A stretch of DNA of 64,000 nucleotides from Octopus vulgaris (lineage: Eukaryota): contig OX597816.1 in assembly GCA_951406725.2 (NCBI GenBank), positions 85,436,001 to 85,500,000 on the forward strand. The letters run 5' to 3'. The position numbers and the translations under genes are program-made. The notes below the pieces were generated by a model that worked only from the letters and a program-made list of their open reading frames with translations, had not been told where the DNA came from and ran no database searches. Positions 6,778-62,976 of this stretch are shown here, piece by piece. How positions within the stretch are numbered: position 1 is the first letter of the stretch; every line of letters starts with the position of its first letter.

Positions 6778-9700
6778 TGGCTGATAAACAAACCATTATA
6801 ATGTCCGTGAAAGGAACATGCTCGTTGCGGAAAAATTGAGGAGGAGGAAAAAAATGTGAGAATAAGAACGTCGAATAGCCTAAGCTTCATGACGTCACTG
6901 AGGTGAATGATGTTTCGTCTCTGAACAACAAAAGTTTCGGCGTCGGCAACGAGAACAATAACAGCAGCAGCAGTGACAACACCACCAACAACAACGACGA
7001 CGACGATGACGACAACAAAAACAATGGTAACAACAGCAACATTGACACACAGCAACAACAATAAGAAAAAAATGAAACATAAAAACGCAAATATCGCCCC
7101 CGCTTCTTTTGTGTTTGCGGTGGGAAATATGGAAAGTTTACACATAGATGAAGAAGAATTAAAATTAGCTAGAAAGATTGTAAAAAGAGATGGAAGAAGG
7201 GTAGATCTAAACCACCCAACCGACATGATAAAAAATACCGCAAGATGCACGGTAACATACCGTTGTATCGGAGTGAAGTCTCGGAGGGTGGAAAATGCTC
7301 CTGAGAGCGAAATACAAAAATGCCTTGGGCGCATGTGGGATGCCTTGGGCGCATCATCAGAGGAAAGAAGTTTGGAACTCCAGAGGTGAGATTTGGGAAG
7401 GAAGAAGAAGTTAGATGTGATTCCGCGACAACTTTCAGGAATGACAACTTTTTCTTAATCCCCAGCTATCCGAGCCAACGCCTTGCCAAGATTAGGGCGC
7501 TGAATGTGCCGCCAAAAATAGTGGCGGCCTTCGTAGCAGATTTAGAATTGTACGAAGTCACGATATTGGAGGCCTAGAAAGTACCTAAACAAATCTGGTT
7601 AGGTATATATATGGAACTGACTTTGGAATGCAAGCAGGACCGTATCGACCCCTTGCCCGATCTAATCGATCTTCCAGATGGTACTCACCTGTTAGTGTTA
7701 GTGGTGGGTAGAATGCCAAGATGTCGCATATGTGGATCTGTAACCCACCTAATGGTTTTCTGCCCTGAAACAAGAAAAAATAAAGTCTCACTGCTACCAA
7801 ACATTACAACCACCACAAATGCAAAATCATTAAAAAAGGTGTTCAAGACTCCTACACATATTCCCACACTCATGCACACTCCCAAACCAAGAACAAGAAG
7901 GCGTATCCTCCCGGTTGCCACTGAAAAGCAAGTTTCACCTGAATACTCTTCCTCCCAAACCAACATCAACTACAATGACATGGAGAAAGAAGAATCGTAC
8001 GGTCAATGGATCAAAGTGACAAACGGTGTATGCAAAAAGGGAGGAAAGTACACATCCATTCTCCAAGAAATCAACAAAACTTATTCTGGAATTACAACTG
8101 TAACACAATTCACAGACACGCCACCAAAAACAACACGAACAAGAAAAACTCAAAAAGAGCATCATCACAAACAACAGCATGAAATCACCGAAACATAGAA
8201 ACAAACAATTACAAAAATATTCATCAAACTGTAGACGAAATGTATCCATCAAAAACTGTTGTGGGGAAGTGTAACAGTGAATTGATGGATTTTGTAAGTC
8301 AAAACAAAAACAAAATAGAGACAGAGAGAAAGGAATATGGGGATTTCATCCTCAAAATTCCCATGGACAGACTTCGTCAGATGCTTATGAAGCTATAAGA
8401 GAAAAATTACCTGGTAGTGTCGGGATTTAAAAGCTGTTGGAAGGGCTTTGAAAAAAGAAATTCGCCAGTACAGAGGCCCGGAACTACCGGGGTACTCGAA
8501 AATCAAGATGAGTAATTGGAGGATCAGTTAAACTGCTCGGGTTCTGGTTTAGTCCTGACCTCCAGGTAGATAACAATTGGGAAAAGGTGACGAACAGGGT
8601 GACCTTTCTTAGCAAAAAATGAGCAGAGAGGAAATTGTCCTTGAAAGGTCGGGAAGAGGCAGCGAATTCCTACATCGTCTCTGCCATTAATTATCGTATG
8701 GCCGTCGTGCCTTGAGCCAGTTGCTGCTTGATTAGATCGGAGCGTATTCTTTTCATTTTCTTGTGGAAGGAACGGGTTGCTATGGTCTGGTGGTCGGTCT
8801 GCTGCCAACTTCCTCTGCGTAGCGGCATAGGCATGCCATGACTTTGAATGCGCAGACACGCAGCCCGGTTGCGCAAACTGTAACGATTTCTAGAAGCAGA
8901 ACGTTTGTGCATCTTTCTGCATCTTGTCTCCTTGATGGAGCTGTAATCTTGGGTAAAGGATAGGCCAAGACTGGGATCCTGGAACTTAGAATGTTGTCAG
9001 GTGCTCACTGTCTTCTACAAATCGGGTAATGAGATCGGTGGTTATTCCACGTTAGCTATATACAGATGATTAGTAGCGGGTAAGTGCGACGACGTCCTTG
9101 GAGAGAAACTAGGCGTCGATGAAGACGAACTGGTAAGTTTATTACGGAGGACTTTCCGATCGAGATCTACTATGGATAATTTCCAGATGTCGTTGGCGTG
9201 GCAGTGCTACCGGGGAGTGCCGCCGGTTCGAAATAAACTCTACAAGCACGGATGTGCTCTCAGACGGGCTTGTGCGATTTGCTCGCAGAGCGACAAAACC
9301 GTTCTGTATGGACTCATCTAATGTCCGGGAATTACTGACTTGTGGAATTATGTCGAACAGCTGCGGTCGCGTGTGGGACGGATACGTCTGTCAGTTGAAT
9401 CCATAATGATGATTGATGCGCCGCCCCCTTTAATCGGGCAGGCAAAGCAATTTTCCTTTGTCTGGTGGCTGTGGAGAAAGAGGTTGTCTGTTTGACGAGG
9501 CTGAAAGGAATGAGGATAGATACATTCCTCTTTGGAAAAACCCTCATAGACTTCTGAAAGTTTCACTTGAAAAGGAAAGTGAGGGTGGAGAGGGAAGTGC
9601 TGTCCTCGAGTAAATTTATGAAAAGGTGGGTGAAAATTGCGAAAATGATAAGAGTGGATGGTACTGCACTCAGGGTAGACATTTGAGTCGAAAAAAAGAG

Positions 9701-9965
9701 TTGGAGACCCTTCTCGTCGTTGGTATTCAGGGTGGACTTGGATGGCGAGGTTCCTCGATTATACCTAGAGGTCCTGCTGTATCGGAGGGACCCCATCACA
9801 ATCACTTTCCCCTCTTTTTCTAGTGTCGTATATTATGTATACTTCTCTTTTGTATACTGTGTATGCTTTTTATTTTAGCATTACATTATACGTAACCCCC
9901 CACACTTTATGTCTATCTTTGTATTTTCCCCTTCATCCTTCGTCCAGGTGTGAACGAAATGAAAT
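6778..9965 (+). mobile_element. Tx1/L1-clade LINE: disrupted ORF1 plus ORF2 C-terminus, endonuclease and RT core absent
   Basis: ORF1 pieces carry a CCHC knuckle (PRCRICGSVTHLMVFCP). ORF2 resumes near 8525 (VKLLGFWFSPDLQVDNNWEKV) and includes a zf-RVT-like SLAWQCYRG...CAICSQSDKTV segment. The 3' end runs into (ATC)n. Confidence 0.8.
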
Positions 9966-10739: not shown

Positions 10740-11225
10740 GCCAGTCGTTGGAATGCCGTCAGAAGCTCACTGCTCTCTGCCAGTCGGGCAATTCAGTCGG
10801 AGGAAGGCCTACAATAGCAATATATAAAAACTAGTAGACGGTAAGAGTGATTATATTCTCGGGGAATCTCTTGGCTTCGATGAATATGAAATATTTTCGA
10901 AGACTTTCAGGCCTGGAACTACTATAGCTAACTTCTAAAGATCCCTGACATGGGAGTGCTACCGCGGAACACTGTCAGTTCAAGACAAACTCTTCAGGCA
11001 CGGAAGTGCTGTCAGACAGGATTTCCGAGGTGCACGAAGATGGACGAAACCGTTCAGTATGTACTCGTGCAGTGTCAGAGTATTACTAAGATATGGAGGT
11101 ATGGGACTATTGGTTGAATCCATTGTGTGGATCGCCTTACCACCCATCTTTAGCAAGGCAGTGCGGACATTGTTCCTCTGTCTAGTGGTCATGTGGTAGA
11201 GGAAAGGTTTCAAGAAAGACACTGT
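10740..11225 (+). pseudogene. Tx1-like ORF2 C-terminal (zf-RVT) remnant
   Basis: RSLTWECYRGTLSVQDKLFRHGSAV..DETVQYVLVQC, homologous to 9190-9330 and 36580-36660. Confidence 0.75.
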
Positions 11226-35445: not shown

Positions 35446-37282
35446 TATACGCTATCCCGAAAAGATCTATCCAGGACAACCTTCACTTCACGCGCAACAT
35501 CATAGAGAGGGTAAGGAAGGAACCTGGCATGGGGGAGGCTTTGATCAATCCAAAGCTTTTGACAGGATCAACCATCAACACTAGGGGGCTGTCTTCGCGG
35601 CGGCCAGCTTCGGTCCTATTTTCTGAGGTTGGATCGCTGCAATGGAGACCGGCATCTACTCGGTGGTAAAAAAAAACGACCATCTATCAGAATCGTTTAG
35701 AATTGCTTACTCGGTCCGTCAATGATGCATACTCCCACCCTTCAGTACGTGGTAGCTCACGAGCCACTACCGAGTAAACTGGCTACTTCGACGAGCATCC
35801 CAAGTGATCTAGGATGCGGAGAGTTCGTGTCGGTTTGTGCGGATGTTTTCGGCTCTAACTTAATGGAGTAAGAAGCGGTGAAATGTCGGTGGACCTGCTA
35901 GAAAGGCAGATGCATGCCCACCGACAGCGTTGTCTGGCCCAGGACCGGTAAAATTGCACGGGGTCTGGTCCAGGTGCACAAGAACTGGGGAGATGTGACG
36001 AGAAGGGTAGCCAGCCTCACATAGAAATTGGGAGAGAGAAAGCTGTACATGAAAGGTCGGGTGGAGGTGGTGAATGCGCACATTGCTGCCGTCATCTATT
36101 AGCGTCTGATCATCGTCCCTTGCACTGCTTCATAGCTGACCAACCCGGAGCGCTTGCTTTTCAGCTTTCTGTGGGAGGTCCATCTGCTGTCTTAATAACC
36201 ACTGAGTGGAGGAGTGGGTGTACCATGGCTAATGATGCGCAGATACGCGCTGAGGCTACAGCATTTTCGTACGGGAGAACAGGTGTGGTCACCGTTTATC
36301 GAGGAGGATGTTCCGGAGCTCGTCTCATTTACGGAGCTACAGTCATGGATCAAACGTAGACCAAGAAATAGAGCATGACACCTGGAGTGTCGGCAAGCGA
36401 TCACGGCTTTCTGCAAGTCAGGCAACGTGGTCGGTGAAAGTTACACTATGGAGTACTACAGGGGAGTAGTGGAGGATAAGAGAAACGTCCTTGGGGAAAC
36501 TCTGGGCGTCGGGAGGGATCAATTAATTGATCTCTTTCGGAGGACTTTCGGGCGGGGGACTATGGATAACTTCCAGAAATCCCTGGCCTGGCAGTGCTAC
36601 TGGGGAGCACTGAGTGTTCGAGACAAGATCTACGGACACAGAAGTACAGTCAGACAGACCTGACCGAGGTGTGTACAGGGCAGCTTCGTGGAGCTTTGTT
36701 GAACAGCTGTTATCACCTGTAGGATAGATCCAGTCGTCAACCGAGTCTATCGTGAAGATCGCCCCACCACCTTCCATTGGTCGGGAAGGAAAGGCAGTTT
36801 TCCTCTGTCTGGTGGATATGGCAAAAGACGTAGTGTGGTGAACGAGACCAAAGAGACAGAAAACAGATACTTTCTTCTTCGGCCAAGCCCTCATCGACAT
36901 TTTCAAGTTATACTCGAAAAGGAAAGTGGGAGTAGGGAGGGATGGCCTAGTTCCCATCAGTAAATTTGTTGAAAGGTGGGTGCACGTGACGAGGATGGCC
37001 CTGCAAATGGGCCCACTCTGAAGTTGCGTTTGTAAACCGGAGGAGATGAGAAGGAGACAAGGGCATGTTGAGATGCACCTGGCGATCGAGATAACGGGGT
37101 TGTGTGAGTTTTTGCAATTCTCACTGTGTGGAAATCACCATTTTCGGGAATTTCTGTTGTTAATTTGTTTTGTTATTTTTTCTTGTTATTTATTTTATAC
37201 ACGGCATTATTCAACGCCCAACTTGCCGCTTGTATCGTCCCTTTTGTTATTGTGTTGGGCACTTGTGGCCAATAAAATTAAG
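35446..37282 (+). mobile_element. 5'-truncated Tx1/L1-clade LINE (decayed RT plus zf-RVT plus 3' UTR)
   Basis: RSIQDNLHFTRNII, DQSKAFDRINH, MDNFQKSLAWQCYWGALSVRDK. The 3' end GGGCACTTGTGGCCAATAAA is followed by (TTA)n. Confidence 0.85.
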
Positions 37283-37344
37283 TATTATTATTATTATTAT
37301 TATAATTATTATCATTATTGTTATTATTATTATTATTATTACAT

Positions 37345-40300
37345 TTTTTTTTCTTCTTTCAAATTTTCTTCCATTTCTTGCTGAGTGTCTTCCCGACTCC
37401 TAGGGCAAAGAAACTCATAGTGTATATTGGTAGGCCATTAAACCAAACTCAGTAGTTCGTTCATTTTTTATTTTTTATTTTTTTATTTTTAAAGTTAAAT
37501 TAAAATACATGAGCAGCAACAGTTCTCACATCGACAATGCTCTTCTCAATACGTGTGATGTACCAGTTAAGACAATCTTTTGCACTTCTTGCAGGGATGG
37601 TAAGCCAGGGATCATTCTCATATAATTTTCGGTTCCCTTCTTGATCATTCCTAGTGCTCCTACGATCACTGGTATTGTAACCGCCTTGAGATGCCACATT
37701 TTCTCAATTTCAATGAGTAGGTCTTTATATTTTCTGAGCTTGTCAAACTCTTTCGCTGAGATATTATGATCACAGCGGATGCTCATGTCGATCAATAAGC
37801 AAACTTTATTGTTTTGGTCTTTCACAACAATATCTGGTTTATTGGCCTTGATGGTTCGGTCTGTATGTACTGGAAAGTCCCACAGAATGGTTACATTTTC
37901 TCCTTCAGTTACAGCCTCAGGGTGGTGATTATACCACTTGTCGGCAGTTTTGATATTGTAATGCCGACGTATTAGCCAGTGGAGATATTGGTCAACTCTG
38001 TCATGTCTTAATTTATACTCCACTGGTGCTAAGACTTTACATCCAGAGATTAGGTGGTCCACTGTTTCAATCATGTCGTTGCAGAATCGGCATTTTGGGT
38101 CTGCTCCATTTTTCATCACATTGGCCTGGTAGTTCCGGGTTAATAGGCTTTGGTCTTGAGCAGCCAGGATGAAACCTTCGCTCTCTGCTTTTATCCCTGA
38201 GCTCCGCAGCCACTGATGGGTTTGCTTCTGGTCAACATCAGCTTGTTTGCTGCGGGTCACATATTTGCCGTGCAGAGGTTTCTCCTCCCACCTATCAGCC
38301 AATTGCTCGTGCGCTTTTTTCATTGCCATCATTTTCACCTTCTTTGCAACAATAGTTGCCGTACTTCCCTCGGGTTGTTCAGTTTGGGTATCCTGCACGA
38401 GATCAATAGCAAATTTTTTGCTTTCCTTGATGATAGAATGAAGCTTCTTTCGTCTCTCGTGATTTTCCACGAGCTTTAGCATCCAGTCATTCGATATTTC
38501 GAGATATTTGGCCAGTCCAATTGTGGTTGTTTTGTAAGCTAGTTCAAATTGGATCAGGCCTCGACCTCCTTGGGCTCTGGGAAGGTAAAGGCGATCTACG
38601 TCTGCCTTTGGGTGGTGCATCCTATTACAACTCAGCAGCTTGCGTATTTTTCTATCTATATTCTTTACTTCACTCATATTCCAGTTCAACACATTGTAGC
38701 TATAAGTAACAACTAGAACTGCTAAGGAATTTATAGCTAACACCTTGTTACGTGCATTTAGTTCAGATTCAGGACTGCACGAACTCTCCTATAACATTCC
38801 TTCCTGATTTTCTCTTTCATTTCATTGAGCAGCTGAACTAGCTTACCGTGTGCGCACGGGAGCGATGCGAGCCAGAAATTCGGCACCCTATCTTTACCGG
38901 GGGATTTCCAATTATGGGCCTTCGTGAGTGCCTTTCTTAGGTCTGCTATTGTGATGTCTTCCCATGCTTGTTGTTGTAAATTTTGGTAGGATCCTTCAGT
39001 TTGTATAATCCAGTCTGCATTTATGTTGTACGTCTTCTTGTCACTCCAAATCCTTTCCCAAAAGTTTTGAACTTCTTCCATGGGAGGGGGTCTTTAACGG
39101 TTACTTTCTCCTTCCCTATTTCTCTGTAGAATTTTTTGGCATTGGATGTGAACAGCTTATTTTGCTTGTAAAACTTGTTTCTCTTCTCAAATCTTCGTAT
39201 TCTTTGGGCTTTTGCTTGGACTTTTTGTTTCAGCGTTTCTTTTATTGATATCAGTTCTTCTCTTGGTGAGGATCCAAATTTTCTCTTCATCTTTCTTCCT
39301 GTTCTGGATCTTACATCATTTCCACATATTAGTTCATTTAATATTGATATTTCCCCTCTCATAAATTCAATCTCTTTTTCAATTTTACTTCTCCAGGTTT
39401 GATTTCTTCCCAGGTTTTGTTTTCCTTTGTTTTTTCGGGGGCATACAGCTGGTTTCAATTGCCCTAGCAGAATCGTAAATAATTTCATTTAACTCAGTAA
39501 AATCAGGTTTTAATTCTCGTATTATTACATTTGTTACATAGTTGCCAATTTGGATTTGTTTTTTATTTTGGTTTGTATTTGAGAGTTTATGAAGCGGTTC
39601 TCTATCATTCATACTTGTATGTCTTACAACTTCAAGCGTATTCAGGATTTTCTGCCTCATTTCTGCCATAGACTCTCTGTGTTCTTCAGCAAATGCGAGA
39701 TCTTCAGTTACTGTTGTTTTTTCGTTTTCCTGGCTATCTTTAACAGGTACAATAGAATTTCTTGTATCTTCAGGCCTTTGCGTACTTTGGTCAGATGGCA
39801 GTCTTTCAATTAAGCCTCGTGGCGGGCTATACTGTTCATGTGATTCTTCATTTCCTTTGTGTCTTATATTTATGTCATTTTCCGTTGCGTGCTTGATCGC
39901 ACTTATTTCACTGTCTGTGAGTCTGTTATTTCTAAAGATATCCCTCCTCACATTTGCTAATTTGTTCTCGTCCAAATAGGGCCTACTGTCTTGATTCCGT
40001 GTTCTCCATATACTGTAAGAGTTTGCGGTGTGTCTCTCTTGAGATGACCTACCTAATGCATAGTAATAAGCGTATATTACTTCTTTATACTCTTCTCGGG
40101 TCCATTTGTTCCGCTTACATTTTTCTTTCTGTGGTGGTTGTGGTGGTGAACTTGGAGGGCTCGAGTTGGGGGATTTCCCGTTCAAGTGACCATCCATGTC
40201 CGTATTCGGAGAAGAGTTTGTGCCAGTTGATGACTTTTCGATCCCAGGCTGGCTCTTCCCTGGGGGACGCGCTTCCAGATTAACCATAGGACAAACGATT

Positions 40301-41224: not shown

Positions 41225-42735
41225 CATTGCTCAAGGTTTGCGGCATTTTGAAGTAGGTATTTTTGCAGTCATATGGAGGTTATTTTTTAATAGTGTTCCA
41301 GCTGTATAAGGCCTCTACCACCTTCTATACGTTGTTATATATAGCCTTTCTATGTCAGATTTTGGGTGGTGCATCCTAGATGTTGTTATTATTTTACTTG
41401 TTTTCCTATCTATTTTGGTTAGCTCATTTAGTGTCCAGTTAGTATAAGGACGATGTAACTTATAACTAGGGCGGCTAAAGTGTTAATACCTATTATCTTG
41501 ATTTTGGCATTGAGCTTTGTTTTTAGTATTGATCTAACTTGTCTATAATATTCTTTCTTTATTTTCTATTTCATTTGTGTGTGCTGTATCATATCTAGTT
41601 CATGGATTCCTAAATATTTATGTCTGGGTTTGGTTTAATTCACTTATTTCATTAGTTTTATCCAGTGTGATGTTGCTACTCTTAACTAGTTTTCCTCTTT
41701 GCAGGGTTGCTTTGGCGCATTTTTCTAACCCCTATGTCATATTTATTTCTTTGGTAAATCCATGTACAGTCTGTAGTAGTGTTTCCAGCTGTTTATCATT
41801 TGTAGCGTATAGTTTTAGTTCATCCATATATAAAAGATGGCTGATCGTTTTGCGGTAACATTTGTATTCGCATCCAGTTCTATTTAACATGTCATATAGA
41901 TGTTTCAGTGCCAAGCAGAAAAGGAGTGGAGAGAGCGTGTCTCCCTGGAATATTCCTTTCCTAATGGCGATAGCTTTGGTTTTCACGAGTCCCTCTTTTG
42001 TTTGGAGCAGTAGCACTGTCTGCCATTTATTCATAGAGTATCTTAGGTATTTTATAATTATTGGGGCTACCTTGTTAATGGCTAGTTTCAAGGATCCACG
42101 TGTGGGGAATACTATCAAAAGCCAATCGGTAGTCGATCCATGCCATACTGAGGCCTTTCTTCTTTCTGCAGATGTCTTCAGTTATGACTTTATTGATCAT
42201 TAGTTGATCATTACAGCCATATGAGCCCTTGCAGCATCCCTTCTGCTCTTCTGGAAACAGGTTTTCTTCCAGATGTTTGCTCAATCTTTGCGATATTATT
42301 GCAGTAAAGGCTTTGTACATTGAAGGGAGACAGGTTATAGGTCTGTAGTTTGTGGTTTTGCCGTTTCATTGGATTTGGGAATTATGATATTTTTCACTTT
42401 CGTGAGTCATTCAAGCACTGTCTCTGGCTCTGCTAGTATGCCGTTAAAGTTTTCAGCCAGCTCTTTGGGTATTCCTGCGAAATATTTTAACCAGAAATTG
42501 GGGATCTTGCCGTGCCCAGGTGCCTTCCATTTGCTTAGTCTTTGCAGTGCCTGAGTGGCCTCTTCAGTTGTTATTGGGGGCCAGAGTCGCTCAGGTGCAA
42601 AGTTCGTTGTTTTAATAGTCCTTTTCTGAGGTTGTTCATTCGCCGACCATATTTCTTTCCAAAATTCTGCTCCTTCTTCTGCTGTTGGTGCTGCAGTGAT
42701 GTCTATTTTATTTTTGCCAAATTCTTGGTAGTTAT
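41225..42735 (-). pseudogene. R4/Dong-like RT-domain fragment bounded by microsatellites
   Basis: NYRPITCLPSMYK, FPEEQKGC, MAWIDYRLAFDSIPH, GIFQGDTLSPLLF, LLYMDELKLY (YMDD changed to YMDE). Contains frameshifts. Confidence 0.9.
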
Positions 42736-45181: not shown

Positions 45182-45603
45182 TGTATGTGTGTGTGTGTGT
45201 GTATGTGTGTGTATACAAGTACGTTTGTACATATCTATTTATGTCTGGGTGTATATATATATATATATATATGCTCAGACATATTTCCATATATGTATTT
45301 CTTTCATAATTATATGTTATTCATAGATTTTTGCTTCATTTTCTTTTATTTTTAATTGAGTTTTTGCTGTCTTTGTTTATATAGTTAGGCCTTTCCTCGT
45401 TTTCTGTTCAAAGTCAGCGTGTTATTCATTCATCTACAAAGTTTGATTGACAGCATTCGGCTATGTAGGCATTTATCTTTAAACATACGTGTACATTCGG
45501 AGTTGTATATAAAAGTCTTATGCAAGTGATTGCATGTAAATATACATAGGCAGGGAATATAAACAAGGAAGGATAAATCTGTGTGTGTGCGCATATATAT
45601 ATA

Positions 45604-46021
45604 TTTACTCTTTCTTTTACTATTTTACTTGTTTCAGTAATTTGACTGCGGCCATGCAGGAGCACCGCCTTTAATCGAGCAACTCGACCCCGGGACTTAT
45701 TCTTTGTAAGCCCAGTACTCATTCTATCGGTCTCTTTTGCCGAACCGCTAAGTGACAGGGACATAAACACACCAGCATCGGTTGTCAAGCAATGCTAGGG
45801 GGACAAACACAGACACACAAACATATGCACACACATTCATATATATGTATACATATATACGACGGGCCTCTTTCAGTTTCCGTCTACCAAATCCACTCAC
45901 GAGGATTTAGTCGGCCCGAGGTTATAGTAGAAGACACTTGCCCCTGGTGGCACGCAGTGGGACTGAACCAGGAACCATGTGGTTCGTATGCAAGCTACTT
46001 ACCACACAGCCACTCCTGCGC
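45604..46021 (-). mobile_element. SINE family A, full length
   Basis: Minus strand shows A box TGGCTGTGTGG, B box GGTTCAGTCCC, a GGGCAAGTGTCTT block, an internal (TG)/(TA) tract and a CATGGCCGCAGTCAAAT.ACTGAAACAAGTAAAA tail. Confidence 0.92.
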
Positions 46022-60654: not shown

Positions 60655-60991
60655 GTATTCTTTTATTCTTTTACTTGTTTCTGTCATTTGACTGCGGCCA
60701 TACTGGAGCACCGCCTTTAGTCGAAAAGCCTAGTACACATCATATCGACTCTTTTTTGCCGAACCGTTAACTTACGGGGACGTAAACATACCGCAGACAC
60801 AGACACACACATACACACACATACACACACATACACAAACATACACACACACATACACACACATATACATATATATAAATACGACGGGCCACTCACCAGG
60901 ATTTGGTCGGCCCGAGGCTATAGTAGAAGACACTCGCCCAAGGAAACACGAAGTGGGACTGAACCCAACCATTTGCTTGGAAAGCAAGCTA
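60655..60991 (-). mobile_element. SINE family A, body and B box (head displaced to 62941-62976)
   Basis: Collinear with 45604-46021 up to AAGCAAGCTA. Confidence 0.9.
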
Positions 60992-62940
60992 ATTTATTTT
61001 ATTAAATTTGCCATAAAGGCCGTACACAGAGTAAAATAGCTTTGCGGGATGGACACGGACATTAATGAGATGAATGATAATGATACAAGGATGATAAGGA
61101 TGGAGAAGACAGAAAGCGCCAGCTGACCCTCTGGTTCTCTATAGCATTGATTTTTCACAGCCATACATTTGAGGTATTAAACCTCTTACAATTTTTCGAT
61201 ATTTACAATTCATTTGGACTAAAAAGTCCATTACATTTAAACACACACTTGAGGCAAAAAACCTCTTATACTAAGTCTTTCTTTCACCATCCCCGATTAA
61301 CCCTCTTGCAATCTGCAGGCAATCCCGCATCCGCAACTCTGTGCCCCACAAGAGAATTCTGTAATCCTCCTTAAAGGAGTCCGTTATATGGACTAATTCC
61401 ATTCTTTCCTGTACCAGAGCAGCCATCTGCGGAGGCCCCTCTGGACTGTCAATATAATCCGAGTCCATCAAAACCCGACTATCTAGAGAATTCGCCACAA
61501 AGTTCTCAATAGCCCCTCCCTTGCGATAGAAGAACACAAATTCATCTCTTTCACCGGGAGGGGCCTCAAATTGCTCGCTCGGTGGCACGCTCGGAGGCAC
61601 CATTTCCTCTAGCGAAGCCACGCGACATGCCGGCAGTGCATTACAAACCGACGGTACTGTCCGGTTTTTATTTGTCTTCTCCCTCCTCCAGCGGCAAACA
61701 TCCTACCGAATGTGTTACGGGACATACTACCAGTACACAGCAACCGTCGGCAATGCCCCGTTTTTCTTCTTCTTCCTTTTTACCTTTACGATGGGAGGGC
61801 GGAGTTCCTCCGACTTGTCCGGAGGTTTCTCCTTCCCTCTCGCCGCCTTAGGATCCGTCAGTGGGCAACCATTGCCCACCTCCTTTCATTTTATTCCTTT
61901 TGTATTCGAGGAGGTTATCTCCTCCTCGCCTTGCTCCCTATCTCCCTCCAATGGGAGATCAGGGGCTCCTCAACAATTATCTGTTCCAGGACATTTGCCT
62001 TGTTCCTACGACAGTTTTTCTTTATGTTCCCCGATTCTAGGCACAGGTGACACTTTGGGGGCGTCCCTCAAGGATCACCAGGTACCTGGAACCGGCCATC
62101 GTTAAGTAATCTTGTAACACCAGATCATCGGCTGATTGGGTCCATAGGGTCAAAAGCAACTTTGACCCCACCCAATCGGCCGCAGGCAGAACTTTTACAT
62201 GCAGAACTTTTACATGCAGAAGCTTGACGGTGCTGCCACACAGCCCCCGACGGATAGAATCCTCTATCCATTCGGGCTCCATATCGGGTGGAGGCCCACA
62301 CACCCAAGCTCTTTTCAGTTTTTGCCCACCGTATGTGGGGAGAAACAAAATTTTCTCCCCTTTTACAGGTTGGCTTGCGAATTTTTGCGCCTCCGCAGGT
62401 GTGTCGAAAAGCACACACACAGTTGTGTATTTCGCACGCCTGCGGATAAACATGAAAGTTGGCAGGAACCCTGCCTGCTCATTTTCAATATCATTGCGAG
62501 AGAAAACCGTAATGGTGTCGAGAGATCTACAATAGGTTCTCAACACCTCGTTGAAATCCTGCAACCACTTTACTACTTTCATCCAACTCTAGCCGACTCC
62601 GTAAATGCAAGGTAAATCCAATGGTAAATCTAATGGTAAATCCAGGGTACGAATAGAAGACAATTTTCACAATAATTTTTCCGGGGTTATATGCTTCACA
62701 AAAAGCACAATTCTCAAAACCCAGTGAGTCTTTTCACACGACAACAGGCAGACAAATGTTTGAAACCCAGTGGAGACCCTTGATCGACACAAATTATTAC
62801 ATACAAAAAATAGACCCCACTGAGCCCCCCCCCCCAAAAAAAAAATCGCCTTACTTGTAGTTGTGCTTCAATTTTTCAATATTTCAACATCGAACGACTT
62901 GACTCCCAAGCATGAAAAAACACGCACACTCCTGTGAAGT
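60992..62940 (-). mobile_element. ORF1-only (HAL1-like) Tx1/L1-derived element with TSD
   Basis: ORF 62037-62582 is homologous to ORF1 at 7320-7800, with a frameshifted knuckle PKCHLCLESGNIKKNC. The frame ends at 61271, followed by a ~280-bp UTR ending GGCCTTTATGGCAAATTTAATAAAATAAA. TSD AAGC(A/G)AGCTA. Confidence 0.8.
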
Positions 62941-62976
62941 AAGCGAGCTACTTACCACACAGCCACTCTTGCGCCT
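62941..62976 (-). mobile_element. Displaced 5' head (A box) of the SINE A copy at 60655
   Basis: AAGCGAGCTACTTACCACACAGCCACTCTTGCGCCT matches 45992-46021. Confidence 0.88.

Follow-up and report, generated by a model that had tools for sequence, protein, structure and literature searches.

A short interspersed nuclear element (SINE) of Octopus vulgaris, lying within the 64,000-nt stretch analyzed here (contig OX597816.1 of assembly GCA_951406725.2, positions 85,436,001 to 85,500,000, hereafter the window), is split by a 1949-bp insert that carries one broken frame of the kind found as the first open reading frame (ORF1) of long interspersed nuclear elements (LINEs). This insert is very probably a decayed copy from an old lineage of ORF1-only elements without long terminal repeats (non-LTR), which occupy a fixed 13-bp site in the SINE head and probably depend for copying in trans on L1/Tx1-type LINEs with the same tail. 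A first-pass annotation of the window had proposed a HAL1-like family with a possible preference for tRNA-like targets, and the HAL1-like, targeted reading is supported by the present analysis.

A family of ORF1-only copies

A search of the octopus genome with the insert yielded 91 matched pieces and 2746 first-look candidates. Relatives were collected in three samples: the 30 best-scoring loci of the 91 matched pieces (sample 1), 30 loci picked by the 3' junction alone (sample 2) and eight loci picked by one variant of the tail (sample 3). The 30 loci of sample 1 hold collinear copies of ~2.0-2.3 kb, with 66-85% identity and the same junction between ORF1 and the 3' untranslated region (UTR). 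Upstream of the junction in sample 2, the ORF1-only protein was found at 17 of the 30 loci, always with a constant gap of ~300 nt to the tail, the C-terminus of an ORF2 at five, and neither at eight. No ORF2 was found between ORF1 and the UTR in any of the 30 sample-1 loci, the 17 junction loci or seven young copies from sample 3, hence its lack in the window copy is not a one-off deletion. Many ~2-kb copies with one ORF1-to-UTR junction, free of an intervening ORF2, are thus present in the genome, in line with the ORF1-only family that had been predicted from the window copy.

The young copies, found at seven of the eight sample-3 loci, form a subfamily of ~2.25-kb elements with 94.6-99.1% mutual identity, two of which retain open frames of 414 and 416 aa. 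The longest open frame in sample 1, that of locus L007, encodes a protein of 404 aa (P0001). Since the protein of the young subfamily is only 52% identical to P0001, the ORF1-only build must be old and common to deep branches of the family.

Two further observations concern the young subfamily. At locus L070 (G000:C1:39261150-39263650, at ~2339-2432), the first ~50 nt of the subfamily are joined to its tail in a ~95-nt mini-copy; it occupies the same SINE 13-mer and resembles a SINE-like derivative formed by internal deletion. Contigs from four sequencing runs, whose RNA nature is a guess, cover most of a young copy; the pieces are at most 590 nt long with a low word depth and were counted neither way on expression, and joints in these contigs that skip ~2250 nt are uninterrupted SINE copies.

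A single insertion site in the SINE head

Among the sample-1 loci, 22 have a visible 5' end, and all of these abut the 13-mer GTAGCTYGCTTAC in the same orientation. It is preceded by the SINE head GGAGTGGCTGTGTGGTAA at 21 of them, and at the remaining locus it comes after the tail of another copy. On the 3' side, 23 of the 24 visible ends adjoin the same 13-mer; 20 of the 23 continue from there into the SINE body, starting at the identical SINE position, whereas the 13-mer is followed by another element in L007, L019 and L021, which are therefore head-to-tail arrays within one SINE. The pattern extends genome-wide: a count of exact occurrences of the tail motif ATGGCAAAT-N6-7-AAATAAA gave 1099 (control, 14), with GTAGCT directly after it in 701 of them (control, 0).

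Other elements were noted in tandem arrays inside one SINE. They include a ~1.1-kb element without an ORF and with the same tail (L034, sense 54-1141), an element with a 5' UTR like that of the ORF2-bearing LINE L067, described below, downstream of the L007 copy in the same SINE (L033, sense 43 onward), and a 68%-identical half-element (L031, sense 45 onward).

Distances between the inserts do not track those between their SINE flanks (Mantel r 0.11, p 0.25; 16 loci, 120 pairs), and the closest pair of inserts, 6.4% apart, lies in SINE flanks that are 20.4% apart. Taken together, this lack of correlation, the tandem arrays and the presence of unrelated LINEs at the same site favor repeated independent insertion. 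The targeting part of the initial proposal thus stands in that the sites are non-random, but what is hit is a single, fixed 13-mer within one SINE family and not tRNA-like sequence in general. The SINE head itself was not called a tRNA by ARAGORN, and Rfam gave no match at E up to 1. As a separate observation on this head, six exact 30-mers of it occur on one strand, 167-189 bp apart, at G000:C1:2101842-2102772, in what looks like a satellite-like tandem array.

The copy in the window

The insert and its host SINE both lie on the minus strand, which had not been stated in the first-pass annotation. As read from the sequence, the repeated 10-mers are aagcaagcta (60982-60991) and aagcgagcta (62941-62950), with one mismatch between them, and they enclose the insert at 60992-62940. 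An intact SINE copy in the window (45600-46020, minus strand) carries the repeated word once, which shows that the insert is indeed flanked by a duplication. When other copies are compared, the 10-mer proves to be part of the 13-mer GTAGCTYGCTTAC, located here at 62939-62951 and 60980-60992, with three mismatches in this old copy. The ends of the element lie at 62938-62940 (5') and 60992-60993 (3'), and the SINE body extends from 60991 down to ~60655. Its features, from 5' to 3' of the element, are as follows.

62952-62976, minus strand: head (5' portion) of the host SINE, containing the A-box-like word TGGCTGTGTGG; aligns with the intact SINE head at 45986-46020.
62939-62951, minus strand: 5' copy of the 13-mer, GTAGCTCGCTTAC, the variant with C at base 7; encloses the 10-mer at 62941-62950.
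62583-62938, minus strand: 5' UTR of the ORF1-only element, ~356 nt, beginning TTCACAGGAG; delimited by the frame map.
62040-62582, minus strand: ORF piece A, the N-terminal part, with two predicted RRM-like domains (fold modelled for the 205 homologous residues of L007) and a 15-nt tandem duplication.
61918-62067, minus strand: ORF piece B, in a shifted frame, with the CCHC knuckle and its His-to-Asn change (CHLCLESGNIKKNC); from the family alignment A1.
61730-61969, minus strand: ORF piece C, in a second shifted frame with an internal stop; acidic/basic linker with a KKKK run.
61271-61702, minus strand: ORF piece D, the family-specific C-terminal domain and the stop codon; no counterpart in L067.
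62040-62582, 61918-62067, 61889-61969, 61730-61885 and 61274-61702, minus strand: pieces of the ORF as drawn in the frame map.
60993-61270, minus strand: 3' UTR; 279 nt (60992-61270) when bounded as in the first-pass annotation.
60992-61036, minus strand: 3' tail in common with ORF2-bearing LINEs, ...TCTNTGTA-NNGCC-loop-GGCAAAT-N6-7-AAATAAA, with a 4-bp hairpin (alignments A3 and A5).
60980-60992, minus strand: 3' copy of the 13-mer, decayed, reading TTAGCTTGCTTTC; encloses the 10-mer at 60982-60991.
60655-60979, minus strand: remainder of the host SINE, with the B-box-like word GGTTCAGTCCC, a microsatellite and the tail; 67% identity to intact-SINE positions 21-405.

The 5' end begins at the same base in L002, L005, L022 and L027, and the 3' UTR ends in ...GCCTTTATGGCAAATTTAATAAAATAAA. 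Two or more frameshifts break the ORF, as do several in-frame stops, and the knuckle histidine has been replaced by asparagine. A 15-nt tandem duplication at 62190-62225, which adds LHVKV, was also noted and is not present in the other copies of alignment A1. Neither the window copy nor P0001 matched a reverse transcriptase (RT) or an endonuclease in Pfam. The layout given in the first-pass annotation was confirmed: its 10-bp duplication has exact coordinates, its 5' UTR, single frameshifted ORF1-like frame and ~280-bp 3' end agree with the frame map, and the insert has no detectable trace of ORF2. The SINE had also been described as split between its A and B boxes, and the split point does fall between the words TGGCTGTGTGG and GGTTCAGTCCC, which are A-box-like and B-box-like by the consensus sequences of these boxes.

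A 5' copy of the 13-mer that probably moves with the element

The seventh base of the 13-mer is C in 8 of 26 5' copies, while T occupies this position in every one of the 54 3' copies and intact heads (Fisher p 5e-5). The C-variant 5' copies, the window copy included, span several subfamilies. Exact 30-mers of intact SINE heads show how rare this form is outside the elements, with 236 occurrences of the C form against 29,603 and 29,729 of the T forms (0.4% of ~59,600). Within one and the same element, a 5' copy with C is paired with a 3' copy with T in the window copy, L009 and L013, an asymmetry that a duplicated target cannot account for. These comparisons suggest that the RNA may start at or upstream of the 13-mer and that the 5' copy may be reverse-transcribed from the donor, in which case the apparent 10-bp target-site duplication would belong, at least in part, to the element itself. 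The T forms may be either decayed C forms or target-derived, because the variant C lies in a CpG.

ORF2-bearing LINEs at the same site

We searched for possible partners with the ORF2 C-terminal peptides of L1/Tx1-like remnants in the window as probes. This revealed junction loci in which an ORF2 C-terminus lies immediately upstream of the junction between tail and 13-mer, and four of these loci were extended. Two of them, L067 (~5.47 kb) and L066, have the SINE 13-mer at either end and the same layout, which in L067 runs from the SINE head through the 13-mer, ORF1, ORF2, the tail and the second 13-mer to the SINE body. The ORF1 of L067 has 311 aa and a zf-CCHC match (1.5e-5). Its ORF2 comprises 939 aa with Exo_endo_phos (4e-9) and RVT_1 (1.3e-23) and, after one break, another 196 aa with zf-RVT (9.5e-8). 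The closest solved structure to this ORF2 is the human L1 ORF2p (E 6.6e-63), and a protein search with it returned no named relatives. Judged by the architecture of apurinic/apyrimidinic endonuclease (APE), RT and zf-RVT together with the L1 ORF2p likeness, L066 and L067 are probably LINEs of the L1/Tx1 type.

The DNA that L067 has in common with the half-elements is confined to the last ~45 nt and, in L020, a further 30 nt at the 5' end. This ~45-nt tail is common to L065-L068, and its 4-bp hairpin is well preserved across 27 tails, with 94.4% of cells paired and compensatory change in two of the four pairs. The search for an autonomous partner sharing the 3' end, which had been recommended along with the original proposal, has therefore led to ORF2-bearing LINEs such as L067. 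The RT region of L067 is 98% identical in all 40 scored copies (out of 4820 candidates), and several of these copies lie ~1.4 kb upstream of listed matches of the tail with GTAGCT. Because of this 98% identity and the 95-99% identity within the young ORF1-only subfamily, the enzyme-bearing family and the young half-elements both appear to be recent.

The terminal hairpin of the insert had been compared in the first-pass annotation with the 3' end of a Tx1 element at 37255-37280. An L1/Tx1-like ORF2 remnant does end at 37280, but the likeness of the tails is slight and limited to AATAAAAT and a short G+C hairpin. This remnant is a 5'-truncated ORF2 on the plus strand that ends before an (ATT)n run. 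Another LINE, on the minus strand, has RVT_1 at 41732-42181, a C-terminal ORF at 37526-38788 and its end at ~37290-37330, and the two elements join tail to tail on a single (ATT)n/(AAT)n microsatellite (within window 35450-37330). A second, distant homologue of the ORF1 lies on the plus strand at window 6925-8198, 9070-9406 and 10939-11199, with 29% identity to P0001 aa 61-200 and its own CX2CX4HX4C knuckle, spread over three frames. It is followed ~0.9 kb downstream by zf-RVT-like ORF2 pieces and a tail, the last bases of which, ...GAACGAAATGAAAT, precede (CAT)n(ATT)n near 9960; the whole may be an internally deleted L1/Tx1-like element that landed in a microsatellite.

The ORF1 protein

P0001 consists of an N-terminal region of ~190 aa, a CX2CX4HX4C knuckle, an acidic/basic linker and a C-terminal domain of ~100 aa. 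It is 28% identical to the L067 ORF1 over 161 aa through the knuckle (E 5e-15). Homology to the ORF1 of a LINE that also bears APE, RT and zf-RVT, together with the predicted RRM-RRM-CCHC build, bears out the earlier view of the frame as a true ORF1 homologue. The C-terminal domain has no counterpart in L067.

Pfam found nothing above noise for P0001 or the ORF pieces of the window and no match to L1 ORF1 families, and a sequence search of the PDB with P0001 had no match. A word-index protein search with P0001 retrieved one relative only, and a profile search of 1.84 billion proteins gave 77 relatives at E<=0.001. Ten named relatives that were looked up belong to Octopus sinensis, O. vulgaris, O. 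bimaculoides and Argonauta hians, with zf-CCHC present in several of them. As a lead only, the ESM Atlas placed the intact protein of L072:884-2125 near ZCCHC3-like clusters (RBD_ZCCHC3_1st/2nd, score 0.90), as well as near zf-CCHC clusters of molluscs and arthropods (0.89-0.92 overall); Pfam has no such match in P0001.

The AlphaFold2 (AF2) model of P0001 aa 1-205, built on a 46-row alignment, has a predicted local distance difference test score (pLDDT) of 87.9 and a predicted template modelling score (pTM) of 0.73. When it was compared with 48,161 solved chains (VIA-align), the top matches were almost all RRMs: residues 14-102 resemble La RRM1 (1zh5; Z 8.3, root-mean-square deviation (rmsd) 3.0, 83 aligned), and residues 100-185 resemble Mip6 RRM3 (5d78; Z 8.6, rmsd 2.4, 76 aligned). 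The ORF1 protein is accordingly predicted to have two RRM-like domains before the CCHC knuckle, a prediction that draws its weight from the uniformity of the match list.

The ratio of nonsynonymous to synonymous change (dN/dS) was estimated by the Nei-Gojobori method over the first 188 codons of 11 copies (55 pairs). The median is 0.32, with values of 0.20-0.47 between subfamilies (dS 0.5-1.4) and 0.4-0.99 within them; a ratio below 1 between subfamilies is thus the outcome of the dN/dS check that had been proposed. These values point to purifying selection on the ORF, and the pattern is as expected if the master lineages are under protein-level selection and their copies decay later.

Proposed mechanism

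In the scheme that we propose, the endonuclease of the partner would nick the bottom strand opposite the TAA/GTAGC junction of the SINE head, and its RT would recognize the tail hairpin and AAATAAA and prime there, as the shared, covarying tail suggests. The half-element's own RRM-RRM-knuckle protein may coat its RNA in cis, which would fit its predicted fold and the signs of selection. The RNA would start at or upstream of the 5' 13-mer, so that the 5' repeat would in many cases stem from the donor and not from a duplication of the target, and at the 5' junction the cDNA end may anneal to the target 13-mer, as the C variant points to. Each insertion would leave the 13-mer at both of its ends, which might let later insertions stack into the arrays that are observed. 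By parting box A from box B, an insertion would also disable the RNA polymerase III (Pol III) promoter of the host SINE and silence that copy.

A bolder version of this scheme sees a guild in the ORF1-only elements and the LINEs that serve them, homing to the 13-mer of the SINE promoter by means of RNA-borne copies of it, the choice of target being partly RNA-guided. The transcript would then carry the landing word from its previous site at the 5' end, for which the inherited C variant speaks, and perhaps at the 3' end by read-through. We regard this version as possible and rather doubtful.

Weighing the interpretation

Several points weigh against a targeted, ORF1-only family mobilized by the tail-sharing LINEs. 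Identity to the ORF1 of the partner does not exceed 28%, and the two kinds of element have unrelated UTRs; our searches turned up no autonomous element whose ORF1 is close, so the helper may belong to another family. One 3' end, that of L012, lies away from the 13-mer. The samples are small and biased, with sample 1 made up of the best-scoring 30 loci and the tail and junction loci picked by exact-motif matches only, and the copies used for dN/dS were picked for open frames, which may have lowered the ratio. As for structure, the Z scores of 7-8.6 are middling by the tool's own scale, and the whole-protein AF2 model on the shallow alignment A1 (pLDDT 40) was left unused. Finally, GCTAAC, a variant seen at both ends of young copies, was considered as an RNA-borne 3' tag and dropped, as in intact SINEs it is as common as GCTTAC (29,729 vs 29,603).

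The alternative that survives best, although we consider it unlikely, is that the work is done by something other than the LINEs found here: either an unsampled LINE with a close ORF1, or homing that depends mainly on homology of the RNA-borne 13-mer and not on an endonuclease. The low ORF1 identity, the restriction of common DNA to ~45 nt of tail and the apparent movement of the 5' 13-mer with the element all speak for it. Yet L066 and L067 match the half-elements in site, orientation and tail hairpin, the L067 family (98%) and the young ORF1-only subfamily (95-99%) are both recent, and in target-specific Tx1 elements it is the endonuclease that is held to set the target, as described in PMC4494074.

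Less probable still is composite amplification, in which one interrupted SINE was copied as a unit by the SINE's own partner and the flanks were simply inherited. The recurrence of the same flanks at every copy would follow directly, and the C variant does imply that at least a few bases of the 5' 13-mer are inherited with the element. However, it is disfavored by the Mantel result (r 0.11, p 0.25) and by flanks that differ by 20.4% around inserts that differ by 6.4%, as well as by the passage of 3 of 24 3' ends from the 13-mer into another element, the different families in tandem within one SINE and the use of this site by unrelated ORF2-bearing LINEs.

An origin from a host gene of the RRM-knuckle type, with repeated retro-copying of its mRNA into processed pseudogenes, is scarcely credible: relatives are represented by gene models in Octopus sinensis, O. 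vulgaris and O. bimaculoides, and there is the ESM Atlas lead to ZCCHC3-like clusters (0.90), but the fixed site, the fixed non-poly(A) tail shared with LINEs and the homology to a LINE ORF1 speak against it, and there is no sign of an intron-bearing parent locus. The loss of ORF2 from a full LINE after insertion, for which only its absence in this copy speaks, can be set aside altogether, refuted by the same ORF1-UTR junction at ~2 kb in all sampled relatives and by a build common to subfamilies down to 52% protein identity. An old ORF1-only lineage with a fixed site in the SINE head, probably served by tail-sharing L1/Tx1-type LINEs, is the interpretation that we prefer.

Relation to known systems

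HAL1 is the named precedent for ORF1-only derivatives of L1, as described in PMC5753468. The octopus family works like HAL1, in being an ORF1-only LINE derivative, but is not a member of it. HAL1 belongs to the mammalian L1 lineage and is not reported in that account as site-specific, whereas the present family is an octopod one with a single 13-mer as its site; the octopus ORF1 has an RRM-RRM-CCHC build with an extra C-terminal domain, and the tail is a hairpin plus AAATAAA instead of poly(A). Assignment to HAL1 proper was rejected on the lack of a Pfam L1 ORF1 match (Transposase_22), the lack of poly(A) and the restriction of the named relatives to octopods.

Target-specific L1/Tx1-type LINEs that insert into other transposons are described in PMC4494074, with Tx1-Mar and SINEU in crocodilians and Tx1L, which enters Tx1D, in Xenopus. 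According to that paper, non-autonomous riders share the target, copies flank copies and some 5' ends are target-derived. Likewise, the octopus riders and LINEs share a target within a transposon, stack in arrays and probably carry a target-derived word at the 5' end. The differences are that the riders described there are short non-coding SINEs and the targets DNA transposons, whereas the octopus rider encodes an ORF1 protein apparently under selection and lands in the promoter region of a SINE.

At Drosophila telomeres, HeT-A stands in head-to-tail arrays mixed with its partners TART and TAHRE, and all three belong to the Jockey clade. HeT-A is described as Gag-only and dependent on the Pol of TART (PMC4467039). 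Its target is the chromosome end and it has been domesticated for telomere upkeep, whereas the octopus elements occupy an internal DNA word and nothing indicates a host function.

R2 and R1 are co-transcribed with their target, and their RNA ends derived from it make integration more precise, as reported in PMC4494074, citing Eickbush and Fujimoto. They offer a model for the element-carried 13-mer, as do the 5'-extended Tx1-Mar and SINEU elements set out in the same source. The differences are that R2 has a restriction-like endonuclease and that both R2 and R1 are autonomous and target rRNA genes.

A 2026 paper on the repeats of Octopus vulgaris counts 13 L1-Tx1 families and 421 recent insertions (PMC13282606). 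Its main text is without the words 'ORF1', 'target', 'nested' and 'non-autonomous', and its supplements may list the families described here. In the literature searched, no description of a SINE-homing ORF1-only system was found, and Repbase may list the families.

Significance

The octopus system joins three habits that are known separately: ORF1-only half LINEs, Tx1-like landing in a transposon and riders that share the target of their partner. It is abundant and seemingly recently active, and it hits the major SINE of the genome in its promoter region. For annotation this matters in two ways, as repeat maskers will mis-split the nested arrays, and the open frames already stand as 'uncharacterized proteins' in octopus gene sets.

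The family also offers a natural case for what an ORF1 protein contributes when the enzyme comes from elsewhere, for the part that a tail hairpin and target-derived RNA ends play in the precision of integration, and for whether transposons limit one another. If the guild of RNA-guided homing elements were real, each copy would rebuild its landing site, with arrays as the outcome, and each hit would split the Pol III promoter of a SINE, so that a protein-coding LINE parasite would act as a hyperparasite of SINEs and would still be active in the octopus genome.

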